A stretch of DNA of 63,839 nt, filler included, from Fonticula-like sp. SCN 57-25 (GCA_001724245.1; 3 parts of 3 records of this genome joined end to end with filler, not necessarily neighbours in it), one strand, 5' to 3'. Positions 19,523 to 63,839 are shown, numbered from the whole stretch's first letter. Notes: generated by a model not told the origin, from the sequence alone. A program made the numbers and translations.

Positions 19523-20982
19523 GATGGCTGGATGGCGGGCCGCGCTGGCGATGCTGGCAGCGATCCTCGTCTGCGGTATGTGCTCGTGTCGCCAATCTGT
19601 TCTTACTCAAAAACGCACGTGATTTTAGTCACGAGCGTGAATGACAACATCGCATACGAGATTAGTGGGGACTACACGTCCGTTATCGCTGAAACCAACA
19701 ACTTTGGGCCTCATAGTACGATGGCGGCCAATACTCAAAAGGTCTACTTACAGCTGGTTCAAATTAGAGAGTGGTTTTTATTACTTGCAAGGCGGCAGCA
19801 GCGGAACCGACCCGGCCACCTACGCTTACATCCAGTTTGACTTTGCCTCGTTCGCGGTACGCTCAGAATCAACCCCGTGTTTCATAACGATGATGGGAGC
19901 GACCGAATAATTGTGACTCATTGCCAAACATGTAGCCAGTAGTGCAAAAATTTTGCGCGTATGGCACTCCTACCTTTAACATAATGCCCGAGTTATCGTC
20001 CACTTTGACGCGCACCTTTACTCAACTGCTGTTCGATGCTCCGGCGACTACATGGTCCGCTTCAGGGCCTGCCGCCCAACTTTCGCACTGTTGTTCCGCT
20101 GACACACCATTGTCTTTATAACAGGACACACGAATCTATTACCTGGCAAAACCAGCCGTCAACAAAAACGCGACTTGGATCCCTGGAAACCGCAACCAAC
20201 TACGCTGTCAATGGAAGGTACGCACGCACAGAAACATCGTTATGAGCCGTTCTGAATGGCAAATAGCTTTGCTTCAATTGCCTTTAGTGCGGAAACGCTC
20301 AATGCTGCTGTTCGACTCTCCAATAGCAAGGTGCGCATAGTTGCTCGAAGAGTTGTATTGCTCATGGCGCACTTGTTGCAGACTGGCTTCCGCCACGCAT
20401 TCGATGATTACATTACTTTGAAATATCATGGCTGGGTGTCTGGCTTGTCATACCGGGCGTTCATTGCATTTGATTACAATACGTGCGACTCGGTAGCGAC
20501 CTGTAACGTGAGCACCGGTGCTTGTACTTGTTTCCCTGGGTACATCGGCCCAGGCACCTCTTGCCGCCGTACGAATATCAATTAATGGATGCCGTTCTAT
20601 TTACAACATCTGTTAGTTCCAAACATATGTGATACCACTGAATGCGACCCAAATGCGACATGCAACACTGACAATGGTGAGTGTACCTGCAACCCGGGGT
20701 ACATTGGCTCTGGCACCTCGTGCCGCCGTACGCTTATCCATGAAACGATGCCTTTCAACTTACACCGTCGGTTAGTTCCTAACGTTTGTGATACGGCTGT
20801 ATGCCACGCTCATGCAACATGCAACGTTGAAAAGGGTGGGTGCATTTGCAACCCTGGCTACACCGGCTCGGGCACCAATTGCCGCCGTACGCAGATCGTT
20901 TCGGCATTAACGATTACCTAACTCAAAACCATTAGTTATGACTAAATGCGAAACCACAGTCAAAAAGCTATGTTCAAGCTAG
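19523..20982 (+). CDS. Secreted DNRLRE/CBM96-like domain + 3 EGF-like repeats (family member 1; possible frameshift near 19740)
   Basis: Signal peptide [30 protein letters not shown]...[11 protein letters not shown]...[11 protein letters not shown]; three C-x(3-5)-ATCN..G.C.C.PGY.G.GT.C EGF units; stop TAG 20980-20982. Confidence 0.7.
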
Positions 20983-21590
20983 GCATTGAAACCAGCTAGT
21001 GAATCTGGTACTTTAGTGGTATGGGTACTTTACAACACGTTTTGTGATTCTGTTACATTGCAATGTTAGTCTTTTTAAACGCATCTTACAATAATGTTGC
21101 GAAAATTGATGTTCGTCGGTGAACGGGTGAGCTTCGTTGTCGTTCATATTCAGTATGTCGTTGTTTCCATGTTGTGTGCATTGCATTGGTATCACTGTAG
21201 CTGCTATAAGGGGGGTGTTTGGGGGGATGAGAATTTTCCAAAAATGGTCTCAAAGTTGGGTGAAAATTGACAAAAATTTGGCGCGAAAAAATCAGACAAT
21301 CTGATGTGTAGGCAGGTGGAAAAATGAAATTTTTGTTTTCAAAAACTGAAAAAGTGGAAAACGAAAACAACGAATTTTTCTTGTGTACTCCTACCCACAA
21401 GAAATTTCGCAAAACGGCGTGTTCCTGAAACTCAGAATCGTCCCCAAACAGGTAGAAAGAGCGACCGAAAATCACCCATTCCCATCCCAAAATCGCACGC
21501 CAGAAAACACCAAAATGTGGTGGTAAAGCCGACTGTAACCCGCCCGCCGGACAGTCAAATTTGAGTATAAGGTGGTGACAGAGTGACCGA

Positions 21591-21690
21591 NNNNNNNNNN
21601 NNNNNNNNNNNNNNNNNNNNNNNNNNNNNNNNNNTTAATTAATTAANNNNNNNNNNNNNNNNNNNNNNNNNNNNNNNNNNNNNNNNNNNN
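21591..21690. other. Artificial contig linker (N-run + TTAATTAATTAA six-frame stop + N-run)
   Basis: Seen directly in the sequence. Confidence 0.97.
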
Positions 21691-21940
21691 AGAGCAATAT
21701 CGCCTTCGTCGAGCGCTATTCGGGGAGCCGTCTTAGTATCGCTGTCCCACCCCTGCTTCCAACGATAAACGCGTACCTCTGATGGGATTCGAATCCTCAT
21801 TCTCCTCTTCGCCCGTGTTCTTGTCTATATAAAAAAGAAGAACCACATAGTTAGCCCACTGAATATCACAATGCACAAGGGGCTGCGGCCGAAGCAAGCC
21901 ACGTACACTTTTCCCAGTCTTCGCCGCGAGCCGACCCCAT
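21691..21940 (-). CDS. RPT1: 26S proteasome AAA ATPase Rpt1/PSMC2, 5' end only (truncated by gap)
   Basis: Three spliced exons give MGSARGEDWEK|YKNTGEEENEDSNPIR|ALDEGDIAL, matching the Rpt1/PSMC2 N-terminus. Confidence 0.85.
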
Positions 21941-22058
21941 CGTGAAGACGCCGTCAAGCCGAAAGAGCGCACACAAAAACGAACGAATACGTCATCGGCG
22001 TAATAATACCGAAATCTTGTAATCGTGCGTCAGCGTTTCTTGATAGGCCGCGTCAACA

Positions 22059-23901
22059 ATGGGTCAGGCGGCGAGCACCGAGTTGGCGAGCCCGGCGCTG
22101 GCTCTTCTCTCGGCGGGCGAGCGCGCCATGCTCGAAGACGCGTACAAGATCATGATAAGCGCGCGGGGTGACAAGGAAGAAGTGCCGATTTCGCACTTCG
22201 CGGTACGACCATCCGCCTGTCTGCTGCGTCACGCGGGCTCACTAGGGGGTAACAGGATCAGTGGCGCATGCTTGATCCGACCTCGCGGAGGGGTCTCGCG
22301 CGCGCATTTGCGGCGGGTCACACGGAAGCGGTGACAAAGATTGCGTTCCTTGGGTCTGCCGCTGAGCTGCTGCAGGGGTCGACCGAGGATCGCGCACTGT
22401 TCTGCATGGACTGGGCGCTCCACTTTGACGATCCCACCCCCGGGGCAGAGCCGTCGGCCGCCGTCACACACAAGACCGAGGTCGCGCTGCCGCGGCTCAG
22501 GAGGAACCTGGGCGCGCCGACGAGCCGTGATAGGCGATCGCTCTTGATGGCGGCCGGCGGGCGGCCAGTCACCCTCAAGCGCATGCTTGACTTTATCACA
22601 GCTGTCGCCTCTGCTTCGCTGCGGCTCCTCCGCGTGCTCGACGGATACAAGGACCCCGTGCGTTTAAAGCTTTTTTTTGTGTGTGTCTTGTGTTTCACAC
22701 GGCTTATTTTTTGTTCGTCAGCTTGCAAATGCCGACAACGCCCCGTTCGACGGCCAGGTGGCCCCCGAGCGCTTTGTCCTCCTGCTGCTCCAGCAGGCCC
22801 ACTTTCAGCAAGCCCAGTCGCTCTACTCGTTTGACGGCGCGACACAGCCCGCCGTTGCGCCGCTCCCAGAGTCCTACTCGGTGGACGACTTTGTCGCGTG
22901 GTACCGCAAATCGGTCACCTTCCAGCAGCTGCTCAACGTCTTTATCACATTCGCGTTTTCCCGCCCCGAGGCCGTCGTACGCTGCTACTCGTGCGTCTTT
23001 TTACGAGCATATTCTAATGTTTGGGTTGTAGACGGCCGCGCTGGATCGGATCGCGCACCCGCCGACGACCTCGTCGCCCGTGCCGCAGGAGGTGCTCAAG
23101 GACCGCGAGGACCTGCTGCGCCTCCCACACATCAACGGCAAGAGCGCGCTCCTGAGCGACGCTGATATCTGGTGGCTTGGGACCTTTATGCCGCACCACC
23201 TCCGCAGGCGCTGGCGCGTACGGCTCGCACTCGTTGGCTCTGTTTCATCGCTGACCCTCCTTGCAGCTACTCTTCACCGACACGATCCACGGGATGAGCT
23301 GGGCGCGCATGTCGTCGCAGATCCAGGATCAGGGACCGACGCTGGTCATTATTGAGGATGAAGAGGGCGCCCGCTTTGGCGGCTGGGCGTCGCAGTCGTG
23401 GTCGCGGCAGCCAGGCTTTTATGGTGATGAGACGTCGTTCCTCATGACGCTGTCGCCAAAGCTCGCGGCCTACCAGAGCTCGCGACTTAATAACCACTTT
23501 CAGTACTTTAATTATAGCACAAAGACGCTCCCGAACGGCCTGGTACGCTTGTTTGTACCTCTTTTGATCGGCTTGAACTGACATGCCTTTTTGTACAGGG
23601 GATGGGTGGGCAGTTTGACTACTTTGGCCTGTGGCTCCCCGAGTCGCTTGAGGGCGGCCACAGCAAGGCGGAGCCGCTCAGTACGACGTACAGCTCGCCG
23701 CAGCTGTCGCACAGCCAGGTGTTCAAGATCAAGCACATTGAGGTGTGGGCGTGCGGGCCAGAGCCAAAGAAGGAGGACGACGGGCCGAGTATTCTCGACC
23801 AGTACAAGGAGGACCGCGTCATTCTGGAGTGGGCGGGGCGGCAGCAGTTTTCGCAGGGGCAGCGCAACGACAGGGAGATCGAATACGACGACGAGGCGTG
23901 A
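22059..23901 (+). CDS. MEAK7: TLDc-domain protein, MEAK7/TLDC1-like, with N-myristoylation-type start
   Basis: MGQAAS start; LLFTDTIHGMSWARM...QGPTLVIIEDEEGARFGGWASQSW...FYGDETSFL; NNHFQYFN...LPNGL|GMGGQFDYFGLWL; IEVWACG; SILD...DRVILE.AG. Confidence 0.85.
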
Positions 23902-24063
23902 GCGCGCACCTTTGTGGCCTTTTTGTATCAATGCATGTTGAGTAGATTGCAATTGTCTACCTTGAGGCTGTTCGGGGGGACGGGGTTGGTGCCACCTTGG
24001 AAAAGCCCGCCAAAATTTCAACAATCGATTTTGTTGCTGTCCACCGCCAGGGATTGAGCGAGC

Positions 24064-24907
24064 ATGGGCGACTTTAAGCGCTTGAAATTACATCTCTTGC
24101 CAGAGGAGCTTGTCACTGCTCCCGCGGCCGTAGAGTATGACGACCGTCTGGTGTCTCCTTTCGCGACTCCGCGCGCTACAGACGAGCTGTCGATTCTCGT
24201 ACGGAACTTGCGCTGTCGGATTGGGGGTAACGGCTAACGAGGGGCGGCTGAATAGATCGTAGGGAGCGGTAAAACGGGAAAGAAGACGCTTTCGCAGTTG
24301 CTGCGCAGGGCGACGGGCGGCGCAAACCTTCGCATGTGCGTAATCCGGTGGTCTGTTTTACACGAATGTCTCATTGTTCGTTTCCAGCTACTCGACGTCA
24401 TCGCTGCCGCTACCTCGCGAGGGTGCCACAAAAGCTCACTCATTTGACTTTGTCATTATTCTGGTGAATATGGTGGACGCGTATTCGTGCGATGTGGCGC
24501 GCATGTCGTTGGAGCGCATCCGGTTGGAGGCCATCTATGGGCGGTGCTGCATCGTCTGCACCCACGGTACGCCCGTGCCCCTTTCTTCCGCCCTCGTCGC
24601 TAATTTCGCCACAGCCGACCGCACGAGCGCCTACAGCGTACTTCCCGAGTCGGTGGAGAACCTTGCCATGGCCTTTCAATTGCCCGTTCTCTACGCTGAT
24701 CTTTTGGTGCGTCATCGCTTTGTTGGTTCTTGTGTTCTGACCTCTTTTCCATGGCGCCAGAGAGGGAGCTCTGCTCAACTTGCCGCTCGTATTCACAAGC
24801 TGCTGAAAATTTCGGCTGGCCTGCTCGCCTCTGATGGCGGAACGCCGTCGGCGGTCATCAGTGCAGAGCCGATGCTCGTCACGCCAACGCAAATCTTGGA
24901 TGACTAA
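24064..24907 (+). CDS. CENPM: Centromere protein M-like (small GTPase fold)
   Basis: SIL|IVGSGKTGKKTL; SSLPLP; FDFVIILVNM..AYS; GRCCIVCT; LA..FQLPVLYADL; AARIHKLLKISAG follow the CENP-M motif order. Confidence 0.75.
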
Positions 24908-25032
24908 ATCACGCGCACCATTCTGTCACATTTTGTTGTATTAAAGATAATGTACATACCAATAAGTCATATTTCAAAACATATTTACCAAACTTGTCAA
25001 ACGCGCATATACACGGGTTCGCATCCGGCGGT

Positions 25033-25233
25033 CTACTTGTGGTCAGGTTGAGGCGTCACCTCTGCCTTTCCTTGGTACTTTTCGTAGCAGGCCCGAAACT
25101 CGCGGACTTCGTTCGAACACTTTCTCCAGTCTCTATGCTCTGCAAAGCACAGCAGGACCTTTTCGTTCAAGTCTGCGCAGCCCGTCCGCTCGATCCGCGC
25201 CGTGTACTCGTCCACCTCCTCCGCCTCCGACAT
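25033..25233 (-). CDS. COA4: Cytochrome c oxidase assembly factor 4 (twin CX9C)
   Basis: DEYTARIERTGCADLNEKVLLCFAEHRDWRKCSNEVREFRAC. Confidence 0.85.
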   Translation of the reverse strand: MSEAEEVDEYTARIERTGCADLNEKVLLCFAEHRDWRKCSNEVREFRACYEKYQGKAEVTPQPDHK

Positions 25234-25351
25234 CGTGACCACGTGGATGAATGGTTTGATTGGCGGTCCTTTGCGCTTTGTGATTGGTCAATAAATTGGC
25301 GGGAAACCGGCGTGCGTGCAACAATCGACAGCATTTATTGGATGCGGTTTT

Positions 25352-26416
25352 CTATTCGAGGAGGTAGTCACGGAGCACGTCGTAATAGTCGGTGTTGAGC
25401 AGCGGGGCGTCGCAGTTGAGGAGCTCCTCGTAAAACTCGACCTTGTTGGGCGTTCCCCAGAAGCGCACCTAGAGAACAGTAAGACACAGGGCCACATTGG
25501 TCCTGGCGTACCCGCTGGCCACGGGCGGCAGCCGTCGTCACGTAGTGGCGCACGCGCTCCTGCGTCTCCTCATCAAACGGCGTCTGTAAAAGAGTAAGCA
25601 AATGACCATTCAGCCTGCGGAAAATGCGCACGGCGGTGCTGTCAAAGAGCGAGTCCCAGCTTTGCGACATCCACGGGTAAATGGCGGCAATGTCCTCGGC
25701 ATCGTCGTCAAAGTTGTCCAGAATGCGGCCGTCGAGCGCCGCGTAGCGCACGCTCATATTGCGGAGGTACTCTTGCGAGACGCGGTTCCCCGAAATTAGC
25801 ACCAGGACGGCGCCCTCCGTCGTGTTGACTGCGATCACAGTCAGCGCAGTGGCGGGAAAACAAATCGCGTACTGATGCCGTTGGACGTGTGGAAGGTGAC
25901 AAAGAGGCCCGGGTACTGCGCAGCAAAGTACTCGAGGCTCGCGTGAATGGCCTCAAAGGTCTCCTCGGCGTCCGTCTTGACATCAATGTTGAGCGTGAAC
26001 GTCTTGCCGACGTTGAGCTTGTGAGCGAGCGGCTACGGGGGTGTTAGGGCCGCGAGCGAGCGACCTCTGCGTACCTGGATATACGTCGTCTCGACAAAGC
26101 GGTCAGCTAGGACCTGAAAGTATGCGTCGTCAAGCGACACATTGCAGGCGCGCTACATGGGGACAAGGTAAGCTGCAAGCGCGAGACACTGGCGGCGGAC
26201 CACATAGCAGTTGTGGCCGATGACCACGACGCCATCCTGAAGGAACACGTCAGGCTCGACGTTGCAAAAGCCGGCGTCCAGCGCAGGGATCAAAGGGTCG
26301 CCATTCTCCTGGTCGTTGTGAGCGTACGCGCGCAGGAGCGGCGTGGGCCAGGTCTGGCGCGCGGCCGCAATGGCCGCCAGCGCCGCCACCAGTACGACCA
26401 CCTCGAGACGCATCAT
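25352..26416 (-). CDS. AIM6-like PLC/GDPD-fold phosphodiesterase with signal peptide
   Basis: Signal peptide MMRLEVVVLVAALAAIAAA; AYAHND...PLIPALDAGFCNVEPDVFL...VIGH; TLNIDVK; VLISGNR; C-terminal LLNTD. Confidence 0.75.
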
Positions 26417-26514
26417 GTCGGATGTGATTGGACTGCACAAATTTTCAAATTTCACTTTTGTCACATCAATAATCAGCTTGTTGGGTTCCCTGGGCGGCCA
26501 GCGATTGCGACAAA

Positions 26515-27742
26515 ATGAAGAAGAAGGTGCGCTCGCTTGGCGGCGTCGCGGCTTTCGGCAAGCTCACGCAATGTTGTTTTTGATAAACAGGTCTTGCTTA
26601 TGGGCAAGAGCGGGTCTGGAAAGACTTCCATGCGCTCAATCATCTTTGCGAACTATATCGCTCGCGACACCCGCCGGTTGGGCGCTACGAGTACGTCACT
26701 TTCGTCGGCAAAAGTGCCCTTTGCCTAACTGTGGCTGCTTGTCGTTTAGTTGATGTCGAGCACTCGCACGTCCGTTTTCTTGGCAATTTGGTGCTGAACC
26801 TGTGGGACTGCGGAGGGTGCGCACCTTGCCTGCCTCCTCCCTTGGCTAACCGTGCCCCTGCAGCCAAGAGGCGTTCATGGAGAATTACTTTGCCAGCCAG
26901 CGCGACCACATCTTCCGCAACGTCGAGGTTCTTATTTACGTGTTTGACGTGGAGAGCCGCGAGCTGGAAAAGGACATGCACTACTACCAGTCGTGCCTTG
27001 AGGCCATCCTTCAAAACTCCAAGGAGGCCAAAATTTTCTGCCTGATCCACAAGATGGATCTCGTACAAGAGGATCAGCGCGATATTGTACGAGATTATTT
27101 CTGTGTCGCCTTTTTTCTAACGCCCGCGCGTGCAGGTGTTTGCCGAGCGCGAGGCCGAGCTGCGCCGCCGGTCGCTACCCCTCGACATCACCTGCTTCCG
27201 CACGTCCATATGGGACGAGACGCTCTACAAGGTTCGTTCGCTGGCCATTGTACTTTTATATTCACCAAGGCTGTTCAATTAGGCGTGGTCGTCGATTGTG
27301 TACTCGCTCATCCCGAATGTCAAGCTGCTCGAGTCGCACCTGATGACGTTTTGCAACATTTGCGAGGCTGACGAGGTCGTTCTGTTTGAGCGCGCAACTT
27401 TCCTCGTGATCTCGCACGCGACGTCGCGCGAGCACCGCGACGTGCACCGCTTTGAAAAGATTTCAAACATCATCAAGCAGTTCAAGCTGAGCTGCAGCAA
27501 GTCGCAGGCGCACTTTCAGAGCATGGAAGTCCGCAACTCGACATTCACCGCCTTTGTCGACTTTTTGACGGCCAACACATACGTCATGGTCATCCAATCA
27601 GATCCCTCTATCCGTACGCCTTTTCATGCTTTTATGTACTAGTTTGGCTAATATGAACGATGCAGAGTCGGCCGCCACGCACATTAACATTGCCGTCGCG
27701 CGGCAGCACTTTGAGAAGCTCGAGGGCGGCACGCTCAAATAA
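26515..27742 (+). CDS. RRAGA: Rag GTPase A/B (Gtr1)
   Basis: [78 protein letters not shown]. Confidence 0.97.
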
Positions 27743-27963
27743 GGTGCAGCGGCTGTCGCGGGCGTTTCGGGTTCGATTCCTGCGTGATATGTGCCCCTTT
27801 TCCCTGTAGTGTGCGTGCGAAGAGGGCCGTTTTTCTCCCTTTTTCGTGCCGATGTGACGCGCGCGCTCTTATTTCATAAACGTTTTATTACTGTCATCCA
27901 TCGGAAGAATACCATAAACACTTGAAATCGAACGAAGCGAGCTATGTGCCGCGCGCCAATTAC

Positions 27964-28901: not shown

Positions 28902-28998
28902 CGCTCTGCCGACGCACCAACCAAAGTCTGACAGCGCAAATCAGGACGCAAATCAGAAAATCAGAAGGAATCAGAACGTCCCTGTTCGTCTGTTCAAG

Positions 28999-29676
28999 AT
29001 GGCGGCAGCGTCGCTCAAAGTGCAAAAGTTTTGGGCCGGCCTCGGTGCGATATTACCCTTTCGCTTGCCTCGCTAACGGCGGCATACAGAGCCCGTTCGG
29101 GTCCCACTGTATGATAGGAGCGCGCACAAGCATGCGCTGGACGATTTTGTGCGCCAGCTGTTTGAGCAAGTGTATGAATACACCGAGGATCAAGGCACGA
29201 GCAACATCAAGCTTGTCCTGGGCTATATTGGCTGCATAGCGGCCCTGGGCGGCTCTGCGTACGCCTATTTCCTCCCGTTTGAGCAAACGCGCGTCTTTCT
29301 CGCCGTGTGCGTCGTTGTGTACTTTGTGTGCAGCTCGGCCATGTCGTGGGTTGCCCACAAGGAAGGCGGCCGCGTCTTCCAGGGATCGTCAAAGATCGCG
29401 TCGGTGCGCCGTCTCTTTTGTCGTTGCTTCTTTTGTTTTTGACTGACTCTTTGATAGGGGCGTCGGTTAATTGACGTGTCGGCCGAGTGGCCCGCGGGGA
29501 CATCGCAGTACACGTATCGCGCCTCGGGGACGCAGGGCACCAAGCACGGCGAGTCTTCGGTTTCGTTCGACCTCGGGCAGGTGTTTGACAGCAGCGGGCT
29601 GCTGCTCACGAGCGTCGTACACGAGCACATTGCAAAGCTCATCGCCGCCGTCTACGCCGACTCGAAGAAAAACTAG
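28999..29676 (+). CDS. SPCS2: Signal peptidase complex subunit 2 (SPC25)
   Basis: VPLYDRSAHKHALDDFV...YTED....NIKLVLG...AYFLPFEQTRVFLAVCVVVYF; GQVFDSSGLL. Confidence 0.85.
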
Positions 29677-29738
29677 ACAAACTATACATTTTGCTTTATT
29701 GTATCATTCAATCAAAATTCAATGCTTTATGCCCTTGG

Positions 29739-36098: not shown

Positions 36099-38658
36099 TC
36101 ACAAAAGAACGTCGTCGAGAATCCTCAGCGCGCGCTGGTACACCTCGAGCTGGTGCCTGCATCTATCGCGCTCCGCCGCCGTACTGTCCTCCTCGGTGAG
36201 CACCTCGGCCAGCCCGTCCGAGCGGTACAGTGCCGACACGAGGCGGCTCTGAAGCTGATCCCGCGACCGGTTCACCATGTGGTACATGATCGCCTTGGGC
36301 ACCAGATCGGCAACGTGCTTGCGCACGATGTTAAAGTAGGAGATGATGAGGGCGCGCAGCAGCTCAACCTCCATCTGCTCCTTTTCGGTCATCTCGCCAA
36401 CGCGCTGGTCCATCGTCGACAGCATGTCGACCTGTAAAAGTATCAGTAAAAGGGAATGTCTTTTGTTTCCTTCAAACGCACCTTTGCCACCCCGCCCGCC
36501 TGCACTGGCGTCGTCTGCCACCCGCCAAAAATCCCCATAAGCGACGTCAGCTGCCTCAGCTTGCCGCCCTCGTCGCCCCTTCCCGCCGCGCCATTCGCCG
36601 CCGCCCGCCCGTCGGCCCCGATCGTCGCCGACGCCCCCGCTGCCGCCGCTGCGCGACGGTCGCCTTCCTCCTTTGTCCGCCGGTGGCGCTCAATCACTAT
36701 CTGTTGTGTCAGCGTACATGTGGCGTCAAAAGAGGCGGACCTTCGATGGCACGCGCGGCGCCGATAAAGTCGGGGTGGCCCGTGTTGATTAGGGCGAGCT
36801 CAATGTTGATGAGCTCCTCAACGGCACGCTTTGCTGGCGCGAGGCCTTCGCGGAGCAGCGCGGTCGTCTCCTGCATGATGCGCGCGCTCAGAGCGGGGAA
36901 GCGCTTCACATCCTATAACGTACGTCAGTGACACTTCAAGATGCGTAAAGTGATGGAAATGACCAGCAACTACATAATTGACCTAACGACTGCGCCAATG
37001 AAGCAAAACTGACGAAAATACAGCAAAAAACAACGGAATATAGTTCTCAAACACAAATAAAGCATGTATATCCCTTCACTTCCCCGCCCGCACCTGCGCC
37101 TCCGCCATGGCCGCCACGCGCATCAGCTCCTCAAACACAAGGTCAACGCAGCGCTGCGCGGGGTCCGCCAGCCGCGCGATCTGCCGCTTGACGATGAGCT
37201 CAAAGGCCAGGTCGGGAATGAACAGCATTGAACGCGGCCCCTGCATGGAGTTAGTTTCGCGGGCAGTCATAGAGTAGGACGTACGGCAGAGTTGCGGATG
37301 GCCGTGCGGATCTCGCTGAGTGAGAGGCCGCCGCAGGGGTCGGTTTGCTCAAGTGTGCGAGCAAAGAGATCATTAAAGACGTAATGAATGCGCGCTCCGC
37401 CAGTCCTATAAAGACACGTTACAAAGCCGTACGCACTATTCAAGCATAGGCCATCCACCTATCTCACGTACAGTTCTGCTTGCTGCACGCGCATCGTGCC
37501 CTCAATTGACCGATTAAATGACGTGGCAAAATCCGTCAGCAACTGCAGCAACAGCTTTAACTATGCACGCTAGTCAGAGAACGATTCGCATAGTTTGTCG
37601 CGCACCGGCTCCGCGTCCGACTCGAACGAGACCGGCTTGCCAAACGTGGCGAGCTCGTCGGCCGCGCCGCCCGCCAGCGCCGCCAGCTTCTTCCTTATTG
37701 ACGGGGTTTGCTCCCTGATGCTCTGCACAAGCAACTTATTGAGCGTCTTGGTGAGGTAAGGCGTGCCACACCGGGCCGCAAACGCCCGGTACGCCTCGTG
37801 GCCCCTAAAGAACTCTTCCTCGGCCCGCAGCGAGTCCCTGATCCCCTTGCCCTGCTGCGTGTCGCGCTGGCTCCTGCTCACAACGCCGACGTACCCAAGG
37901 CGCAGCGGGACCACGCGGCCGTAGAGCGCGTCGATGGCGCTCGTCCCGCTGTCCATGAGGTCAAGCTTGGTCACCACGCCGACTGTGCGCAGGCCCTCGG
38001 GGTCCACCTGGCGCGCCAGCTTGAGCGACTCGGAATTTGCAAGATCGACGTTGGCCGCGCTCACCGCGAGAATGATCGCATGCGGGTTCTGGATGTGCTC
38101 GAGGGCGAGCGCGCGGACCTGCTCCTCGATGTCGCGAGGCTGATCACCGACGGGCACCTTCGTGATGCCGGGGAGATCAACTAGTGTAAGGTTTACAACG
38201 TCCGGTGCATGAATGCTCAGCACAATCGGCGTAGAGCAGACCTTCTTGCTCGCGCCGCCGCCAAGTGCGCGCGATGTCTCGAGCTCAATCTCGCGGCGCA
38301 CAAGGCCAAAGTCGGTAAAGATCTCGCCCGGCTTGTGCTCAAACTCGGCGTACTCGGCCGGCTCATCAAGCACGGCGGGCAGCGACGCGTATGTGTCTGC
38401 GTCGCCGGCGCGAGGGGAGTGCGCAGGGGCACTGGCGCCGCTCGCGAGCGTGTGGAGCTGAAGGACGAGGGGGCGTCGTGTGACGACATCGGGGCCGCGC
38501 GGGAGGAAATCCCGGCCGACAATATTCTCGAGAACGGACGATTTGCCGGTGCTCTGGCTGCCAATGACAACAATGCGAGGGAGGCGCAGTGGGTCGTGGC
38601 CAAGTGACGCGAGAGCAGACTGCACACGGTTGATGAGCGGGATCAGCTCCGACCCCAT
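36099..38658 (-). CDS. DNM1: Dynamin-related GTPase Dnm1/Drp1 (fission)
   Basis: LIPLINRVQ; IVVIGSQSTGKSSVLENIVGRDFLPRG; LVDLPGITKVPVGDQP; TKLDLMD; GGARIHY; IRTAIRNSA|GPRSMLFIPDLAFE; GED domain SYFNIVRK..DLVPKAIM. Confidence 0.88.
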
Positions 38659-38891
38659 CGCGGAAACAGTGACACACGGCCAATCGTGATGACGTAGATT
38701 GTGCAAAGTGCAAACTGCTCACATGTGGCCCACTAGCTGCCGACTAGCGTGGGTCCGTGGGATTCTAAATTCTATAAATAAGTTGCGCCGAGCGGGCCTG
38801 CAGCTTTGCAGCTTAGCTTAGATCTTTGGTTCCTCGCTCGCAGCTCGCGAACTACCCGTAGGGAGGATAAGCCAAGGTGGAGGAGCCGACA

Positions 38892-41800
38892 ATGCGGGAT
38901 GTTCTACTGCTAATCGCGCTGTTGGCTACCGCCATCTCGACTGCAGGTGCGGTTACCTCCGGTCTTACAACCCAGGGTCTGCTCACGGCAGACGTCTCTA
39001 TGTGTAGCCTCGCAGAACACGCGCGTGTACATGTACAACGGCGCTTCTACCTACTCTAGCAATGGTAGTCGTAACTACGAGGTTGGATCCCGCCACCAGA
39101 CCAAATTTTGCGATGGGGTGCCAGGCTGCACGGACGAATACAAAACGTACAACCTGGTGTACACTCAAGGAACCGGGTCAATGCCGCGCTGGATGGCCTA
39201 CACAGTCTATGACTTTTCTGCCCTGGCAGTACGTCACATGGGTTTCTGCTTCTTCTCACACGTCTAACGTTTCGCATTTGACAGCCTGCCCCGAGTCGCT
39301 TCTGCGCCACTGGCGCGCCCAAGCTCTTTCTGAGCCAATCTAGCACAAGCGTGGCTCCCGATATGGCTACCACGGTTACAACTGATGCCCTTGCCAATAT
39401 GTACGCGAAATATCACTGGCGACGCTGCCGATATTAACACGCTGCTTAGCGATTACGGCAAATTGACGTGGAACAATCAACCTCCGTTTACATCATACCT
39501 TGTCCGCGTATCGCAATCAGGCTACACAAAGGCATCAGAGTGCGACTGAGTGCCATTTTAGTTGCGTTTGCTAATGGCCTATCCAGGTGGTGGTACTATG
39601 TCGACCTCTCTGCCGTCTTGCTCAACACTATCGTGCGCAAGTCGGCCAGCGCCGTACGCATCACCCCCTTTGTCGAGTCATCCATTCACTCCGTGCCCTT
39701 AGGTGACGCTCCGCCAGCAGTACACGCATGGTACCCTCATCGGCTGGGAAACACACAAAGGGTCTTCTCCTTTTAAACCCTACGTAGCCCTCGACTATTT
39801 GACGTGTGACGAGAATGCGACCTGCTCCTACAATGGCGTATGCACCTGCAACACGCAATATGCCGGATCGGGGACAAAGTGTACTTGTACGCTACTTTTG
39901 TTTATATTGTTCTTGATCTAATCATCTATTTTCGCCTGATTTTCAGATAGCTCGTGTGACACGACGATCATGGGGAACGCCAATTTCACCTTGACATTGT
40001 CGGGCGAGGTTGCATCGGGGACCTGCCTCCCTGGCTACACTGGGCATCCGAAAGCGCTTTGTAGCAATACTGTTTGGGGCGCTGTGAGCGACCCTTGTAT
40101 TCGTTCGTATTTCGCTTGCCAGCCTGCATTTGCTGACGTCGCCCCTAGCATTGACGTGCCCCGAGGACATCACCCAGACCACTGGTAACGCCAGGTACGC
40201 GAGGACAAACGCTGGCCAGTTTACCACGGGTTTCTGTATCACTGGCTACAACGGAACTGCGACCCGATTCTGCTCCCTCCATGGCGCTTGGGCGTATGCG
40301 GCAATCGAGTCCTGCAAGCGCATCTCCTGCCCCGCTACAACGATGAGTAACGCAAGATTTATCGAAACCTACAGCTCCACAACCCGCGGTGGCTCCTGTC
40401 TCCCTGGGTACGCGACGAGCTCGGGCACCCCTACGAGCACCTGCTCTGCGTCTGGTGCATGGGGCAGTGTCACAAGGCCTTGTACCCGTACGCCACTCAC
40501 CTGATTGACCATGGCGAATACTCACTTTTTGGCGTAGGTAGAGAGTGCCCAACGTTCACGGACAATGTAAACAAGGCGCAGTGGCCAAAGACCCTCTCAT
40601 CGACGAACGGCGTGGGTGTATGCATGGCGGGCTACCAGGGCTCGCCGCAACGGCCGTGCGGGGCAAATGGAAGCTGGAACAGTACCGTTATTGGTGCCTG
40701 TCATCCGATATATTGCTCAGCCGAATCGACCTTTGAAAATGCTGCGTGGCCGGCGACGAACGCAGGATCAAGCAGCACTGGCACGTGCGTGACTGGGTAC
40801 AGCGGGGCGCCTGTGCGCACGTGCTCGATCACTGGCGTTTGGGCTTCGTCTGTATCGCCCGCGTGCGTTCGCAACACCTGCTCGGCGGCCAATTTTGGAA
40901 ACGCTATTTGGCCTGGCAGCACTCTGTCAATGACCACCGTAACCGGCACGTGCGCGACTGGTTTCTCTGGTGTCCCCTCTCGCGCCTGCAACGCCGATGG
41001 CACGTGGTCATTGTCTGTATCGAACCCATGCGTGAGGTTGTTTTGCCCGTGGGCGCAGCGAAACGACGCTATCTGGCCTCACTCGGCTGCTCCCACCTCC
41101 ACCGTTACGGGCGAATGCGTAGCCGGCTACAGCGGCACGCCTACTCGCGACTGCAGCGTGAGCGGCGACTGGCTAGCTGTTTCTGGTGCATGCACTCGCA
41201 ATCGCTGTAGCGCGATAACAGAGGGCTTTGCCACCTGGGCTGCCGCGGATTCGCTCACGTCGGTTTCTGGGACATGTCAGGCTGGGTACCAAGGCAGCCC
41301 GAGCCGTACTTGCAGCGCCGACGGCACCTTTGGTGAAATCATCAACCCCTGCCGGCGCATCGTGTGCAGTGCTCAGAGGCACGACAATGCGATGTGGTCG
41401 GACACCAATTCTGGAACCACTGCGTCTGGAATTTGCGATCATGGCTGGAGCGGATTGCCCACCAGGGAGTGCAGCTTTACAGGAACGTGGGGTTCCGTCT
41501 CTTCGCAGTGCGAGCGCATCACCTGCCCGTCGATCGATGACGCTTCAGCGCAAGCACTTTTCCCTGCAGCTAACGCAGGCGACCCGGAGCCTGCCATTTC
41601 AATTCGTCCACCGTCCCCACGCGCGACTGTATGTCCAACGGGTCGTGGTCCGAGGTGAGGAACCCATGCAGTACTAGCCAGTGCCCCGCCCTTCAGGACG
41701 ACGGCCACGCGGACTGGGAGAGATCTATGATCGTTAACCGGAATGTGACGGGCACATGCGTGGCCGGATACAACACCACGCTGCCGCCTCCGCAGCGCTT

Positions 41801-43111
41801 GTGTATGGCAAACGGTCAGTGGGCCGCCGAGATTACCAGCCCCTGCCAGCCGATCTTTTGTACCAAGACGTCTTCAAGTTACGCTCCGTTCAACGCCGAT
41901 TGGCCCAACTCGGTGCAGGCCGGTATGGCCGCTCCTGGGACCTGCGCTGCCGGATTCACCGGCACGACGTCGCGCACGTGCTCGCTCACGGGTGAGTGGG
42001 GTATCCCGTCGCCGGCTTGCCAGGCAATCACTTGTCCTGCCATTGGCGACGACGGCGCGCAGAGCTCGTGGCCAATGACGCAGGCTGGCAAGAGCGCGTC
42101 GGGCACCTGCGTGGCAGGCTACGAGGGCACCCCGACTCGCGGGTGCACCCTCGCTGGCCAGTGGGAGGAGGTCTCGTCGCCCTGCACGCAGAAAAAGTGC
42201 CCGGCCGGCACAGCCTCGAACAGCGTGTGGGTGGATACCCTTAGTGGTCTTTCAGCCACTGGAACGTGCGTGTCTGGCTCCGTCGGTTCGGTGACTCGCT
42301 CCTGCTCGTCGGATGGTGTTTGGGGTTTGGTTGTTGGGACGTGTAAATTTGTCGTCTGCCCTGCTGAAATAGTAGGCAATGCACAATGGGGCGATACTCT
42401 CCCCGGAGACGTTGCTATTGGCAGCTGCGTTGCCGGCTATGCGTCCAGCCCAGCACCCAGACGCACGTGTCTTGCAAACGGCAACTGGGGATCTGTCAGC
42501 GGTGCCTGCACGCGTCGTGTCTGCTCCAGCGAAACGTTTGACAATGCCAATTGGCCGTCGGAGAACGCGATGACGAATGACGTGCGTGGAACGTGCACCG
42601 CCGGCTGGTACGGCGCACCGGTGCGAGACTGCAGCTCGAGTGGCCAGTACTCTGCCGTGAGGAACTCCTGCCTCCGTAATATATGCCAAGCTATTGAGAG
42701 CGAGATGGGCGCGTGGGCGCCGACCAACGCCGGCTCGACGAACGTGCAAGGCACCTGCCCTATTGGCACCGTCGGCTCGCCCTTCCGCAACTGTGCCACG
42801 GACGGCACGTGGAGCTCAATCCTGAGCGGTAGTTGTGTCTCGCGGTCGTGTCCCGCCCAGTCGTCTGGACTTGTTGATTGGCCCGCCACGCCGGCGGGCA
42901 GTGTTGCCAGCGGCTCGTGCCCGTACGGATACTATTCGAACCCTTCGCGCGAGTGTTCGTCTACTGGTGTGTGGGGTCCGATCGTGAACCCTTGCTTGCA
43001 GTACATCTGCCCGGCCGTGGTAGACGGCCATGTGCAATGGCCCGCGACGCCGGCGATGTCGACCGCCACAGGCCAGTGCGGGTCAGGCTACTTTGGTTCG
43101 CCATCACGGCC
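38892..43111 (+). CDS. Secreted/surface DNRLRE/CBM96-like + EGF + at least 19 HRM/sushi-like Cys repeats (family member 2; 3' end lost in gap; frameshift near 41590)
   Basis: Signal peptide MRDVLLLIALLATAISTA; WMAYTVYDFSAL...KLTWNNQPP; EGF CDENATCSYNGVCTCNTQYAGSGTKC; tandem C-x(9-12)-WP.T.aG...G.C..GY.G.P.R.C...G.W....C repeats. Confidence 0.85.
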
Positions 43112-56495: not shown

Positions 56496-56969
56496 GAGTC
56501 ATACAATCAAATTAACTAGGTGTGGGCGCGCGCGGGCGCGTCGAGTATGTCGAAAGACGTTTTATCATTCAGTATCTTGAAAGTGATCTTTTTCTCTCAT
56601 GAAAATGTTGCCAAAGGATGAGCCGCGCGAGCCGAAAAGTTCTCGACTTGCGCGTCATCTTTGTGATTTTGATTTGCTTCTGCCGTCTTTGTGTTGTGTG
56701 CGTGTTTGTGATTGTTGTGCGTGTGTGCGTGTGTATAATGTGTGAGGCGGAAGCAATGACTCTTTGTTTTTCGAAACAATATAATTATTTATATCTATAA
56801 TATATACCCGGGAAAACATTTGGGTGAAACACAGCGACTCGCCGCGACCCCTCAAATACACACCCGCCGACAGTCATTGACGTGAAGGCGAGTAAAACAA
56901 AGCAGAGAAATGAAAGAGAACCTTTGCCGAAATCCGAGTGCATCATGTAAATATGCGTTTTTATGACCT

Positions 56970-57310
56970 CTACTCCTTTGCCGTCTTAAGTATGCTGAGC
57001 AGCTGCTTGCTTACCTCGAACATGTCCGCGAGCGTCGCCTTGAGCTCCGCCTCGGCCTCCTTTCGCTCCGCGAGCGCCTGCCTCACCTCGAGCAGCAGCT
57101 CGTGCACATTGCGCGGCAGCGGCTCGTCGCCGCTCCCGGCGCTCCCCAGCCGCATCATCTTGCCGCCGCCGCCCTGCCCGCCGGAAGACGACGGCGTCTC
57201 GGGCATCACGCCGCCGTCGTCAAAGGACCGCTTGCGGCCGCTGCGCGACAGCGCGTCGCCTGCGTCGTCGTCGTCGTCAAACCGCAGCCCGTTGACGCCG
57301 GGCGAACCAG

Positions 57311-57346
<36 letters not shown>

Positions 57347-58150
57347 TGTGGTGCATCGTGGACGGCGTCGCGGGAGAAAGGCCGTCGCTCGCGCCGCCGT
57401 CGCCGCCTTCCAGCACAGCGCGCATCTGCGGGTTCGCCTTGAAAAGGTCGTCCATTTCGCCGAAAAACTCGAAATTTCGCCGCCCGTGGCCCGCTTGAAG
57501 CGATTCCTTGGCGGCCTAGCGTCAAGATCAGGTCAGTCGCGCTGATACAAAAAACAAAAAGAAGGAAAGGAGGCGTACGCGGTACGACTTTGAGAGGACT
57601 TTCCACCTGTTGCGGCACTGCTCGAATGACCGCTTAAAGCCCTTGCCGGTAAGGCGCGAAGCGAGGCGCTCCCACACGAGCCGATTCCGCTTTGTCGTCC
57701 GGAAATCGGCCAGCATATCAACGTAAATTTGAAGGAAAACGCGCGTTTCAACAACGCCCCACCGCTATTAAAGGGCGCAAATGTGTTAGAGCGCACGTAA
57801 AAGAGATGTAATTCGGTCCAAGTGCGTCGCACCTCTTGGTTCTCTATTTCTCCTGTGCCGCTGCGCCCAAGCAGCGGCGTCAACTTTTCATCGGCGGCGA
57901 CCCCGAGATCCGACTTTGATACGCTCCCGCGCCCGCCTTCATTGCCTCCGCCGCTGCCGGCGCTGCCGGCGGGCGTGCCCATATGATGTACATACGAGGT
58001 GTGATCGTGCAGGGCATGGAGGTGGTGGTGGTGGTGGTGGTGATGCAAGCCGGGGACGATCTCGTTCATAAGGCCGTCCGAAACGAGGCCGCCAATAGGC
58101 TTGGCCTCCAGGGTGTTTGCCACCTGCTCCTCCTCTGACCGCTCCATCAA
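56970..58150 (-). CDS. Trihelix (GT-1/MSANTD, Myb_DNA-bind_4) transcription factor with poly-His and poly-Gln tracts and a C-terminal coiled coil
   Basis: Spliced RWGVVETRVFLQIY...RNRLVWERLASRL..KGFKRSFEQCRNRWKVLSKSYR...FEFFGEMDDLF. Confidence 0.8.
57312..57344 (-). repeat. (CAG)n microsatellite encoding poly-Gln
   Basis: Run of CTG triplets on the + strand within the trihelix CDS. Confidence 0.9.
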
Positions 58151-58561
58151 TTATCCACAGGCCGAGGCACGCAAATGCGGGTTGGCGGAGGGCCGCGCGA
58201 CAAAAGAACCGATCGGCAAGAGCGCGCCCTTGCTAGATGATCTCGCCGAATATTCGCCGACGATCGCAATAAAAAAGTAAAAATGCCTATCGCCCCAGTG
58301 CCGTCCTATTGCCCCTAGTCACCCCAGAAGCACGGTCGGTGCGCGATCGAGAGCGCACAAGAACGCTCAAGTCGCCTCTGGAAGGCACCTCACTGCGGCT
58401 CAATTGAGCCGATTTGGAAAGTGGCAGCTTGACAAATTTGCAAATCTGACGATTTTTGTGGGTAATATCGTTCCAGTGTTATGCGACCAGAATACAATAG
58501 GTAATGGCCACGGTACATGCAGTGAATAGCGTGCATAATTCTTCATTAAATATATTTATAA

Positions 58562-59870
<1,309 letters not shown>

Positions 59871-59951
59871 CGTGTACTGGTGAATTTAACGAGAATATAA
59901 TCACAGCATCCAACAGGTGTTTGCAGGCGCCGTGGTCGAGACCGCCACGAG

Positions 59952-62900
59952 ATGGCTGCAGCGAGGCGGCAGCGATGGCTAGCGCTGGCCTTGCTTCTCT
60001 CCATAGCGGCGTCAAGCGGTGCGCATTAGACTGTGGTGGCTTGGCACTCACGAGGGAGGTTAGCGAGCGCCTATGTCCGGGTCAATCAGATCGACGGCGC
60101 AACGACGAAACGTAGCGCGCCAGACCAAAACTTTGCAGTGACTCTTATAACCGATCTCATTTCAATTGCATCTCTTGGGATCAATGAGACCACCAATGGG
60201 GCCCACCTGGTCCCTCTTGACCACTCTGAAATAGCATATTTTGGGTTTAATTTTAGTGAAGTCGCCACAGTACGTCTAGTCGCTGGCTGAGCCTGCGCTG
60301 TGCGCTAACGTTCAATTTTCAATAACCATCTAGTCCTCGCAAACTTGCGCAACAGGCAATGTAAGCCTATACATTCACTTTACCCCATGTGGCGGCGGCT
60401 CCATCGAAGTACCTTCTATTTTTGTAATTGACTCGCCGTCGTTGGATACGTACGCGGGCGGCCGGCTATTGAGACAGCAGCTTACATTCATACTATAGGG
60501 CACTTTCGGCGATTACATGGAATAATCAGCCTTCAATAGACACTTTGTTGTTTGTTAACGAGACGTTTTCAAGCTACACCGTGGCCTCGGTGGGCCTGCC
60601 TACGGGCGACACGTGCGGCCGAGTTATTTCTTTCTCTCAATCTATTAACCATTCGCGCTTGCCTACCACCTTCAACATATCACTTTACAATACCTATTTG
60701 ATACAAGCAGTCTTCAGCCCCCTTGGTATGAGATTTCGTCGTCTATGCTATCTACGTGGGCAAATTCCGCATTCCGCCGAAACGTTCAGGTGTGTTCACA
60801 CTGATACGAATATCTTTAAGCTAACCCATGACTGTCCTCTTCAAGATGGACATTCTTCGCTTGGCACATGTATCTGCGGATTTCACACAGTCGTGCACCA
60901 GTTCTCATCTAACCAAGCCGGCGTATACTCTTGGTGCCTTCCTCGCAATTGATGATATCATGGATTGCCACGCCGACGCAACTTGCAACCAAGGACCCGA
61001 TGGCGCTAGCTGTGAATGCAACACTAATTATATCGGAAACGGAACGCACTGCAGCTACACACCTTGCGAGCAGGGCATCTTTGGTAACGCGGCGTTTCCC
61101 AAGGCGGCTATCGGCTCCACCGTACCCGGCGTGTGCTTTTCTTTGTACAGCGGTAGCCCTTTGATGACGTGTACTGCGGAAGGTTGGAGTGAAGTATCGA
61201 ATCCTTGCGTTAGTGCGTGTTACATTTTTTCATTGTCTTTATCACTTGGCTAAAGCATGGTGCATGGTAGAAATCACGTGCCCGGCGGACACAACGTCGG
61301 CAGTAGGCCATGCGAGTTACCCGATTACTGATGCGGGTACCACCGCGAGTGGCACTTGCAACACCGGCTACATGGGGTCGGCCACGAGGACCTGTTCTGG
61401 GACCGGCTTGTGGGCTACCTCTGCCACAACGTCCTGTACCCGTTCGTGTTTATAAGGTCTCTTTGTGATTAAGCTGACACATATGATTGACAGGAGCTAC
61501 CTGCCCCGCAATAGTAATAGTTGCTGAAAATGCGAGCTTCCCAAAAACGAATAGCATGACGTATGCCTCTGGTACATGCGGCTCTGGTTATCTCGCTGGT
61601 CCCACTGGCCCCCCTACCGCATTCTGCTCATCGGAGGGTGTCTGGGGTCCTGTCTCGAATCCCTGCGTCAGTGCGTGTTTAAAGCACCCCCGCTGGCGCC
61701 ATGCTGCGAAGCACAGGTTAATTCCACAGCTGGCTATGCACACTTTCCTCGCACTCCCATCAACACCGTCGCAACCGGTACTTGCATGACCGGCTACTCG
61801 GGTTCCGCGACGAAGGACTGTTTAGATAGCGGTTGGTCTATCCAACCCATAACTTCATGCATTCGTTCGTGTTTCGATTGAGTCTTGTGATAGCGCTGAC
61901 ACAGTCGATAGGAAACACGTGCCCGCAAACGACTATTAACAATGCGACTTTCCCCAGAACGAACAGCATGACGACGGTTAGTGGTACATGTGCTACAGGT
62001 TACATGGGAAACCCATCCGCAACCTGCTCGGCGGCTGGTACATGGGGCAGCGTCTCCTACCCCTGCACCAGTGCGTGTTTGCAATGCCTCGAGTGGTGCT
62101 ATGCTTACGTAGCACGATTAGAACGAACACACTGCGATGCACAGCCTAATTCAGCAGTTGGATATGCAAGCTTCCCCCTCACGCCCATCAACACAGTCGC
62201 AACCGGTATTTGCATGACCGGCTACGGGGGGTCGGCAAAGAAGACCTGTACTTCGACCGGAGTATGGGCTACCTCTGCCCAATCGTCGTGCACTCGTAGG
62301 TCTATATCTTGCCTTTTGCTTTGCTTACTTGCGTCTTTAGGCCTCAAGTGCATGGGAATGACCGTGGGCGGTGCGACCTACCCACAGACGGATAGCATGA
62401 CGACGGCCTACGGTACATGCATTTCAACCTATGAAGGCACCCCTATTGCAACCTGCTCAGCGACGGGTCTCTGGAACTTTACAACCACCTGCACCAGTGC
62501 GTATCTCTGCATTACATAATCATTTGTTTCGGTTCTGATGCATGGTAGAAATCCAATGCGAAGAGGATACATTCTCCTCAGTTGGACATGCAAACTATCC
62601 GCTCACCGATGCGGGTACCAATGGTGTTGGTACTTGCAACATTGGCTACGAAGGGTTGGCAACGCGCGCTTGCGATGAATGGGGTTTCTGGTCTCACGAT
62701 GCCATCACATCGTGTACTCGTACGTTTAGTTTATTCCTTGTACTCAAACTTACTTTCATTTTATTAGGAATCATGTGCCCACCTGCCACTATTGGCACTG
62801 CCTCATTTGAAGCGACTTATAGCATGACGATGGTGTACGGTACCTGCGCATCAACATATATCGGCTCCCCAACCGCAACCTGCTTAGCCAATGGTACCTG

Positions 62901-63839
62901 GGGACCAGTCGTGGCTCCTTGCGTCAGTGCGTGTTTCTCGAATCGCTTTTCCTGTAGCTCACGTTGGTGCTTGGAAACAGAAATCCAATGCCCAGCGACT
63001 GGATCGGCAGTTGTCGGCTATGCAAGCTATCCGAGCACCGATGCGGGTACCACCGGGATTGGCACTTGCAACATTGGTTACGAGGGGTCGGCAACTCGCG
63101 CTTGCAGTGTGTGGGGTGCCTGGTCCGACACTGCTACTACATCGTGCACTCGTATGTTTTACTTGTTATTGTACCTGGACTTACTCGATTCGCATCTTTA
63201 GGCATCAGGTGCCCAGCTACCACTATTGACACTGCGTACTTTGAAGAAGCTGATAGCATGGGGTCCGCCGCCGGTACATGCGCTGAGGGGTATTCCGGCT
63301 CACCTTACGCGTACTGCGGAGAGACGGGCCTGTGGGACGCGGTTGCTTTCCCGTGTTCTCGTGCGTGTATTTATTCCAAGTTCCTTGATCTCATGACTGT
63401 TGGTAGGAAATATGTGTCCTTTAGAGTACCATGCTGCGGGCAACGTATCATGGCCCGGCACGTTTTCGTTTGAGCATGCTTCTGGTATATGCGCTCCTGG
63501 GTTTTATGGCACACCGCAGCGACAGTGCCTTGCAGATTCGTGGAGCAGCACTGTACATGGCCAGTGCTACCGTACGTTCCCCTGGGCCCGCATGTGTGCA
63601 TTGCCATCGGATACTAATAATTGACTTTAGACATTACATGTCCCGGAGAACAATACCTTAATGCGTCATTCCCAGCTTCAAATGCCGGTTACTACGCAAC
63701 TGGGCAGTGCGAAGACGGCTTTACCGGCATGCCTGAACGCTTTTGTTCATACGAGGGAGTCTGGTCTTCTACGCTATCATTGCAGTGCACTCGTGCGCCT
63801 CTGCATCACGATGATGCCCGATGCTGATGCTTTTTGTCC
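59952..63839 (+). CDS. Secreted/surface DNRLRE/CBM96-like + EGF + at least 13 HRM/sushi-like Cys repeats, about one repeat per exon (family member 3; runs off window)
   Basis: Signal peptide MAAARRQRWLALALLLSIAASS; DGATTKRSAPDQNF...AYFGFNFSEV...AITWNNQPS; EGF CHADATCNQGPDGASCECNTNYIGNGTHC; repeats separated by phase-1 introns. Junctions at 60612-60845 and 61671-61700 could not be resolved. Confidence 0.8.

Follow-up and report, generated by a model that had tools for sequence, protein, structure and literature searches.

For receptor kinases that bind sugars, the plant wall-associated kinases (WAKs) and the lectin- or malectin-type receptor-like kinases (RLKs) serve as the comparison. Here, we analysed a stretch of 63,839 bases (hereafter the window), made up of three contigs, each of which carries one gene (genes 1–3) for a putative secreted protein with a signal peptide, a head resembling CBM96/DNRLRE and EGF modules. 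These genes probably represent a family of receptor-kinase type, comprising secreted or type-I surface proteins with a CBM96-like head, EGF modules, an HRM/sushi-like stalk and a kinase end predicted from relatives, a reading to which we assign a probability of roughly 0.6. If it holds, this family and the plant receptors would have in common an ectodomain of carbohydrate-binding type, EGF modules (as in WAKs), a single membrane helix and a kinase of the IRAK/Pelle/TKL type, whereas the latter have no stalk of ~19 HRM/sushi-like repeats plus fn3 domains, and the present system is found in a protist. Pfam searches with the heads, which like those of NCBIfam were run on contiguous, unspliced exon pieces, returned no match to GUB_WAK, malectin or legume-lectin.

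Animal Eph receptors have the same order of parts, namely an N-terminal beta-sandwich head, a cysteine-rich sushi/EGF region, fn3, one helix and a kinase. The present repeats match Ephrin_CRD, and a long relative (P0012) together with several fragment relatives matches Ephrin_rec_like, but the repeat number is ~10 times higher, no SAM domain was seen, and the solved kinases nearest to that of another relative (P0009) are of TKL type, with tyrosine kinases close behind. Ephrin_lbd matched none of the 15 head pieces at E-values up to 10 in Pfam. The HRM of family-B/adhesion G-protein-coupled receptors is likewise comparable, as the gene 2 repeats pass the Pfam HRM threshold, yet here the units form tandem arrays of 13–19 instead of a single unit before seven transmembrane segments, and they match Sushi and Ephrin_CRD as well; 7tm_2 was found in none of nine scanned relatives. 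The family resembles the plant lectin/WAK-type receptor kinases in logic and the Eph receptors in layout, and is a member of neither.

The heads themselves are most like CBM96/DNRLRE (PF24517, NF033679), whose founder is TM6-N4 of the alginate lyase Dp0100 (PDB 7VBO). Common to both are a length of ~165–200 residues, an invariant [IL]TW[NQ]NQP at the equivalent position and a distal placement in secreted or surface proteins; a Y..FD[FL]S strand 50 residues upstream and a C-terminal P.[ILV]..[DY]Y end are apparently shared as well. Unlike CBM96, the heads carry an additional conserved Cys motif (FCA[TY]G), are split by 3–6 spliceosomal introns and are joined to EGF and HRM modules, not to lyases, S-layer or disaggregatase repeats; moreover, every exon piece is sub-threshold and the similarity beyond the motif is marginal. 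TM6-N4 is reported to bind alginate through Lys/Arg residues (PMC9971899), CBM96 has been noted in a diatom protein related to chitinases (PMC12028343), and it is reported to be among the commonest CBMs of GH71 enzymes, a family said to be frequently encoded by fungi (PMC12394665). An earlier note on this DNA, which had regarded such domains as mainly prokaryotic, was fair in this respect but overlooks the diatom protein and the GH71 enzymes. A full-text literature search retrieved no paper combining "CBM96" and "EGF", and none of the papers found for "DNRLRE" or "CBM96" deals, judged by its title, with such a protein; the family is apparently undescribed.

The three genes and their heads

Spliced models with GT..AG introns were curated by hand against the paralogues and database relatives. 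The start codons lie at 19524 (gene 1), 38892 (gene 2) and 59952 (gene 3), all on the + strand, and the frames are open through all three heads. When the whole window was translated in six frames, a motif of the TW[NQ]NQP type turned up exactly three times, as did AY..[FY][DN]F[SA], in all cases within genes 1–3, in the same order and with 50–51 residues between the two; the mean number of TWNNQP-type motifs in 200 mononucleotide shuffles was 0.025. The variants are ITWQNQP in gene 1, LTWNNQP in gene 2 and ITWNNQP in gene 3. BLASTP of the spliced heads aligned genes 1 and 2 with E 5e-13 (over 149 residues), genes 1 and 3 with 4e-6, and genes 2 and 3 with 3e-5, at identities of 25–27%. In all three genes, introns of phases 1, 0 and 2 occupy the same three positions, respectively directly behind the signal peptide, behind the FDFS..A strand and a few residues ahead of ITWNNQP, and two additional positions are common to genes 1 and 2. 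Because of the pairwise matches and the common introns, the three genes are, as judged from their sequences, paralogues of one family. The earlier note's description of three genes with a signal-peptide exon, motifs in the same order, EGF-like repeats and highly divergent heads is hence accurate, as is its assignment of long Cys-repeat arrays to two of them (genes 2 and 3).

Gene 1 (19524–20982, 10 exons) is complete and encodes the signal peptide, a 183-residue head, three EGF modules and a 15-residue tail, followed by a stop codon at 20980–20982, 0.6 kb short of the contig end; it has no Cys-repeat array. Gene 2 (38892 to past 43111) encodes the signal peptide, a 197-residue head, one EGF-like module and ~19 Cys repeats, and gene 3 (59952 to past 63839) the signal peptide, a 223-residue head, one EGF module and 13 Cys repeats, both being cut by their contig ends. 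The features are as follows:

1–21590: contig 1
21691–43111: contig 2
43212–63839: contig 3
19524–19575, + strand: gene 1 exon 1, signal peptide, ending in phase 1 (donor GTATGT, 53-nucleotide (nt) intron)
19629–19715, 19768–19856, 19936–20054 (FCAYG), 20125–20217 (ITWQNQP) and 20267–20330, + strand: gene 1 head exons (spliced model)
20382–20568, + strand: gene 1 exon with the head C-terminus (..AFIAFDY) and EGF 1
20617–20727 and 20776–20886, + strand: gene 1 EGF 2 and EGF 3 (EGF_3, 36.3 bits)
20936–20982, + strand: gene 1 last exon, 15-residue tail and stop (spliced model)
38892–38946, + strand: gene 2 exon 1, signal peptide MRDVLLLIALLATAISTA, phase 1
39008–39228 (AYTVYDFSALA), 39285–39400 (FCATG), 39450–39539 (LTWNNQP) and 39587–39653 (WWYYVDLSAVL), + strand: gene 2 head exons
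39703–39886, + strand: gene 2 exon with the head C-terminus (WETHKGSSPFKPYVALDY) and one EGF-like module (EGF_3, 20.1 bits, sub-threshold)
39947–43111, + strand: gene 2 HRM/sushi-like array of ~19 repeats (exons 39947–40102, 40149–40487 and 40538 onward)
59952–60018, + strand: gene 3 exon 1, signal peptide MAAARRQRWLALALLLSIAASS, phase 1
60064–60269 (AYFGFNFSEVAT), 60334–60449 (TCATG) and 60499–60789 (ITWNNQP ... AETF), + strand: gene 3 head exons
60902–61209, + strand: gene 3 exon with the head C-terminus (KPAYTLGAFLAIDD), EGF (EGF_3, 30.5 bits) and the first HRM-like repeat
61210–63839, + strand: gene 3 array, 12 further HRM-like repeats, running past the end of contig 3

The introns of the three models measure 45–79 nt, except for one of 112 nt in gene 3 (60790–60901), which was picked by homology to gene 2, and their donors read GTNNG (GTACG, GTGCG, GTTCG, GTATG). 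Exons 8 and 9 of gene 2 were read by hand, and 14 core motifs of its array were located by regular expression. Pfam gathering thresholds are 26.2 bits for HRM (PF02793), 28.5 bits for EGF_3 (PF12947) and 26 bits for CBM96. The gene 2 repeats match HRM with E 2.3e-26 and 6.4e-12 (92.4 bits over seven stretches and 46.1 bits), as well as Ephrin_CRD (E 4.5e-14) and Sushi, while those of gene 3 reach 23.4 and 23.5 bits, just under the HRM threshold. EGF_3 is above threshold in genes 1 and 3 and below it in gene 2 (19.8–20.1 bits). Within gene 3, repeats occur roughly one per exon, with two subtypes in alternation. Many donors of its array (61210–63839) read GT[CT][AC]GTGCGTGTT, a likeness that looks as if exon–intron units had been duplicated jointly.

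The head and CBM96

A degenerate DNA pattern for ITWNNQP retrieved at least 120 prokaryotic loci, 100 of them with enough flanking open reading frame (ORF), and the first 40 were tested. Pfam CBM96 matched 39 of these 40 prokaryotic windows with an E-value of 1e-3 or below, the score exceeding 26 bits in 38 cases, and the remaining one (L041:5424-6074) matched Peptidase_M23 only. ITWNNQP is a hallmark of CBM96 in prokaryotes, just as the earlier note had held. Several of the bacterial CBM96 windows also match TGFb_propeptide, in line with the CBM96 beta-sandwich fold seen in TGF-beta prodomains.

The hallmark segment W-E-x-x-ITWNNQP, near CBM96 profile position 100, is present in all three heads, and the gene 1 motif exon (20126–20215) matches Pfam CBM96 at profile positions 87–111 with 16.6 bits (E 0.0074). 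Comparison of the three-head alignment with the CBM96 windows in hhalign yielded a probability of 96.8% (E 3e-10). With the motif columns deleted from both alignments, P was 0.009; the N part alone gave P 0.012 (AY.qFDFS on RsYLkFDLS) and the C part alone P 0.018–0.027 (f.P.iA.DY on rP.L.V.Y), both collinear. The spacing from FDFS to ITW, 50–51 residues in the heads, compares with a median of 46 (interquartile range 44–53) in CBM96. These comparisons make homology of the heads to CBM96/DNRLRE likely, and we regard a CBM96-type fold as quite probable.

A search with the gene 2 array returned 18 longer proteins, of which nine were scanned with Pfam. P0012, 35% identical in the array, has 1552 residues in a single frame, arranged as Ephrin_rec_like, EGF, a 226-residue head, EGF, a second head, EGF and the array. 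A HMMER search with both of its heads yielded 73 representatives with E-values of 1e-3 or below, most of them metagenome ORFs no larger than an exon or so; a word search with the same heads returned P0012 itself and P0011 only. The profile of the three window heads finds P0031 (E 1.7e-4), P0089 (5.2e-4) and P0075 (2.9e-3) among 90 proteins, and the landmarks YCATG/FCATG and WETH...P.V..DY.TCD are common to the window heads and those relatives. These matches and landmarks place the window heads in the P0012-type family. Without the window sequences this family is not motif-selected, and it still matches CBM96 with 70.9% probability (E 3.8e-5); merged with the window heads, the value is 93.1% (E 3.2e-7), and P 0.003 after deletion of the motif columns. 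Ephrin_rec_like or TNFR-like cysteine modules precede the head in P0012 (residues 1–160), P0030, P0037 and P0080, so in these distant members the head is not always N-terminal, and it may occur twice per protein. A scan of metagenomes of the Joint Genome Institute with the gene 2 array alignment retrieved one uninformative 2.2-kb locus. A word-based search with the gene 3 motif exon had no match, and the ESM Atlas no usable match for this exon or for the P0012 head.

Relatives, the kinase end and the source of the DNA

In metagenome proteins 64–65% identical to gene 2, the repeats are followed by fn3 domains, a single membrane helix and a kinase domain. The gene 2 array is collinear with P0004 and P0003. 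P0004 follows 40528–43109 repeat by repeat, with 59% and 63% identity in two tblastn pieces and 64% in the array search, and continues into more repeats, fn3 (two stretches in Pfam), a 21-residue hydrophobic helix, RRR and PK_Tyr_Ser-Thr/Pkinase. P0005, P0009 and P0010 are built likewise, with fn3, a 21-residue hydrophobic helix plus basic residues and PK_Tyr_Ser-Thr/Pkinase. Helix and kinase are present in four of the 18 relatives found (four of the nine scanned with Pfam), including two of gene 2's closest. The recorded ORFs of P0001–3, P0006–8 and P0012 contain repeats only; these are fragments, recovered from short contigs, and the lack of a kinase in them is therefore uninformative.

P0009, the one relative whose kinase was searched against solved structures, is nearest to CTR1 and IRAK4, with tyrosine kinases and B-Raf next in rank, and its kinase is therefore TKL-like; it has the canonical HRD and DFG motifs (HRDIKTAN and CDFGLAR). 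By eye, P0004 and P0005 keep HRDLRSSN, with SGF/GGL and no Asp in the place of DFG, so that these two may be pseudokinases. A regular-expression search found no HRD motif in P0010. The architecture of the gene 2 relatives suggests that its lineage encodes single-pass receptor (pseudo)kinases, for which the "adhesin, prey-recognition or coat" function proposed in the earlier note is too narrow.

The three contigs are separated by spacers of the form N44-TTAATTAATTAA-N44, and the window has a G+C content of ~57%. Other long frames in it encode BEACH, Rit1, dynamin, importin-type HEAT-repeat, MRG, bromodomain and C2H2 proteins. The BEACH, dynamin, HEAT, MRG and bromodomain neighbours identify the DNA as eukaryotic, and the heads are interrupted internally by spliceosomal introns in all three models: the window derives from an intron-rich, uncultured protist. 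Public matches are best in metagenomes, with 0.97 of the sampled words in a bioreactor run and 0.59 in an aquatic run, followed by smaller shares in wastewater, "fungus" and soil runs; no RNA data were among the public runs matching window words. A dynamin-family gene (Dynamin_N, Dynamin_M; 37570–38718, − strand) is oriented head to head with gene 2, whose start codon is under 200 nt away, and a common promoter region is possible. The tail of contig 1 (20986–21590, 0.6 kb), 3′ of gene 1, is A+T-rich (G+C ~0.45 against 0.57 overall) and contains no clear gene.

The earlier note had placed a family member at the end of every contig and suggested that a large family breaks the assembly. Genes 2 and 3 are indeed cut by their contig ends, but gene 1, with its three EGF modules, ends before the contig does. 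Many public contigs match single gene 2 repeat units and then diverge, and the public run matching the window best (X1) contains a contig that extends 1045 nt beyond the end of contig 2. Depth spikes in this comparison, with summed contig depths of 126.7 and 75.3 against 13–17 nearby, are not copy numbers. Near-identical repeats elsewhere in the sample may plausibly have broken the assembly within genes 2 and 3, but they do not explain the contig end near gene 1.

Mechanism, alternatives and meaning

In the receptor-kinase reading, the signal peptide is followed by a head of ~180–220 residues, most likely a divergent beta-sandwich of CBM96/DNRLRE type whose fold also occurs in TGF-beta prodomains, and then by EGF_3 modules, one to three per protein. 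A stalk of HRM/sushi-like (Eph-CRD-like) cysteine repeats comes next in gene 2 (~19) and gene 3 (~13), and these long forms would continue into fn3, one transmembrane helix and a cytoplasmic kinase, TKL-like in P0009 and pseudokinase-like in the closest relatives. The distal head may bind a ligand outside the cell, which would probably be a polysaccharide from prey, biofilm or cell wall, with the rigid, disulfide-rich stalk keeping the head off the membrane, and ligand occupancy could be relayed to the kinase in the manner of the wall-associated and lectin-type receptor kinases of plants. Gene 1 would be a short, soluble form consisting of the head and three EGF modules, and the gene 2 copy may have been inactivated recently, in a family under birth and death.

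Several results weigh against this reading. In Pfam, none of the 15 head exon pieces reached the CBM96 threshold, 14 of them having no match at all, and none of 13 pieces matched NF033679 in NCBIfam. A local hidden Markov model (HMM), built from 38 of the CBM96 prokaryotic windows, aligned collinearly with the three spliced heads at 29.1, 28.4 and 26.1 bits, scores that are inflated because its training set was picked by the same ITWNNQP motif; with the motif masked, they fell to 4.0, 0.3 and 1.5 bits, values attained by 13, 421 and 77 of 3000 shuffles. Most of the hhalign score against CBM96 likewise comes from the motif itself, the motif-free P being 0.003–0.009. The first P0012 head reached 18.5 bits (E 0.0019) against Pfam CBM96, below threshold, and none of the 24 scanned among the 73 P0012-head relatives matched CBM96 at E 0.1; direct comparison of the window heads with P0012 was not significant, and that with the P0012-type profile gave P 0.026 only. 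None of the 115 prokaryotic pattern matches was confirmed as a relative by tblastn. AlphaFold2 models of the first head of P0012, from an alignment of 57 rows, and of P0020, from one of 36, had mean predicted local distance difference test scores of 49.9 and 50.0, too low for use, the confident portions of both being the EGF parts only. Furthermore, gene 2 is frameshifted in the window and has head-exon indels in other runs; its own kinase end would lie outside the window and is predicted from its relatives, and that of gene 3, for which the window also ends earlier, by analogy with them. Everything past the architecture we infer, and glycan binding by the head purely so.

The head could instead be a lineage-specific fold unrelated to CBM96, with a convergent TW[NQ]NQP turn, and the proteins could be recognition or adhesion receptors that bind other proteins (mating, kin or prey protein). 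The similarity to CBM96 is indeed weak outside the motif (P 0.003–0.03), and Pfam and NCBIfam gave no threshold match on the exon pieces. Profile searches of the PDB, in which 7VBO and 8WAB are the solved CBM96 entries, retrieved no CBM96 chain with either the three-exon profile (A1) or that of the distant head relatives (A2). Strong divergence among paralogous heads is, in addition, what recognition modules would be expected to display. Nevertheless, the motif proved specific for CBM96 in 39 of 40 prokaryotic windows, two more landmarks are collinear with the right spacing, and CBM96 is matched at 71% even by the related family, from which the exact motif is absent, so that we consider an unrelated fold unlikely. 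CBM96 is hence the best reading of what the earlier note had called a prokaryote-type head: the heads align with one another (E 3e-5 or better) and, in hhalign, they match CBM96 alone (96.8%) and merged (93%), although Pfam stays sub-threshold. The profile built from the three heads recovers three relatives and gives P 0.026 against the P0012-type profile. Quite improbable is a non-signalling adhesin or coat protein, in which a secreted or glycosylphosphatidylinositol-anchored stalk would carry the binding head without any kinase. Gene 1 is complete, secreted and anchorless, gene 3 is cut before its C-terminus, and several of the relatives' recorded ORFs contain repeats only; these, however, are the uninformative fragments mentioned above, and membrane helix and kinase do occur in other relatives, two among gene 2's closest.

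That the window copies are decaying pseudogenes was argued for gene 2 only, is compatible with the other readings, and stands at about even odds. Between 41583 and 41586 the frame of gene 2 shifts, as 10 nt are missing (at 41583/4) and four codons are replaced by two bases when compared with P0003, P0004 and P0005. Three further runs (X2, X3 and X4) were compared over the gene: X2 has 10 extra bases exactly at the shift, while X1 agrees with the window. The other frame-breaking indels comprise an inserted TG after 39330 in X1, X3 and X4, which on hand reading introduces a stop codon into head exon 3 along with a phase 2 site that resembles a donor (GTGAG); an insertion of 5 nt into exon 2 in X2, following 39179; and 20 nt absent at 42445 in X3 and X4. 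Owing to these run-specific indels, every gene 2 version seen has at least one that breaks the frame, and the copy may be a recently inactivated family member. On the other side, open frames of 1.3–1.5 kb flank the shift, the splice sites of gene 2 are intact, some of the indels rest on single, error-prone contigs at depth 2–6, and the models of genes 1 and 3 are fully open.

A more elaborate history can be entertained only tentatively: a bacterivorous protist might long ago have acquired a prokaryotic glycan-binding module of CBM96 type, which now has conserved introns, and wired it through EGF, HRM/sushi-like and fn3 modules to IRAK/TKL-type kinases. The products would be diversifying pattern-recognition receptors for bacterial or algal exopolysaccharides, with soluble decoys (gene 1) and rapid birth and death (gene 2), and they would constitute an innate-immunity-like or prey-sensing system independent of those of plants and animals.

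Should the receptor-kinase reading hold, with a working CBM96-type lectin on a kinase-linked stalk, lectin-type receptor kinases would have been invented independently for a third time, in addition to plant RLKs and animal receptors, and in this family a mainly prokaryotic domain would have been built into a eukaryotic signalling architecture. The source protist is uncultured and common in bioreactor, wastewater and soil metagenomes, and its family would provide a handle on how phagotrophic protists sense the polysaccharides of prey and biofilm.

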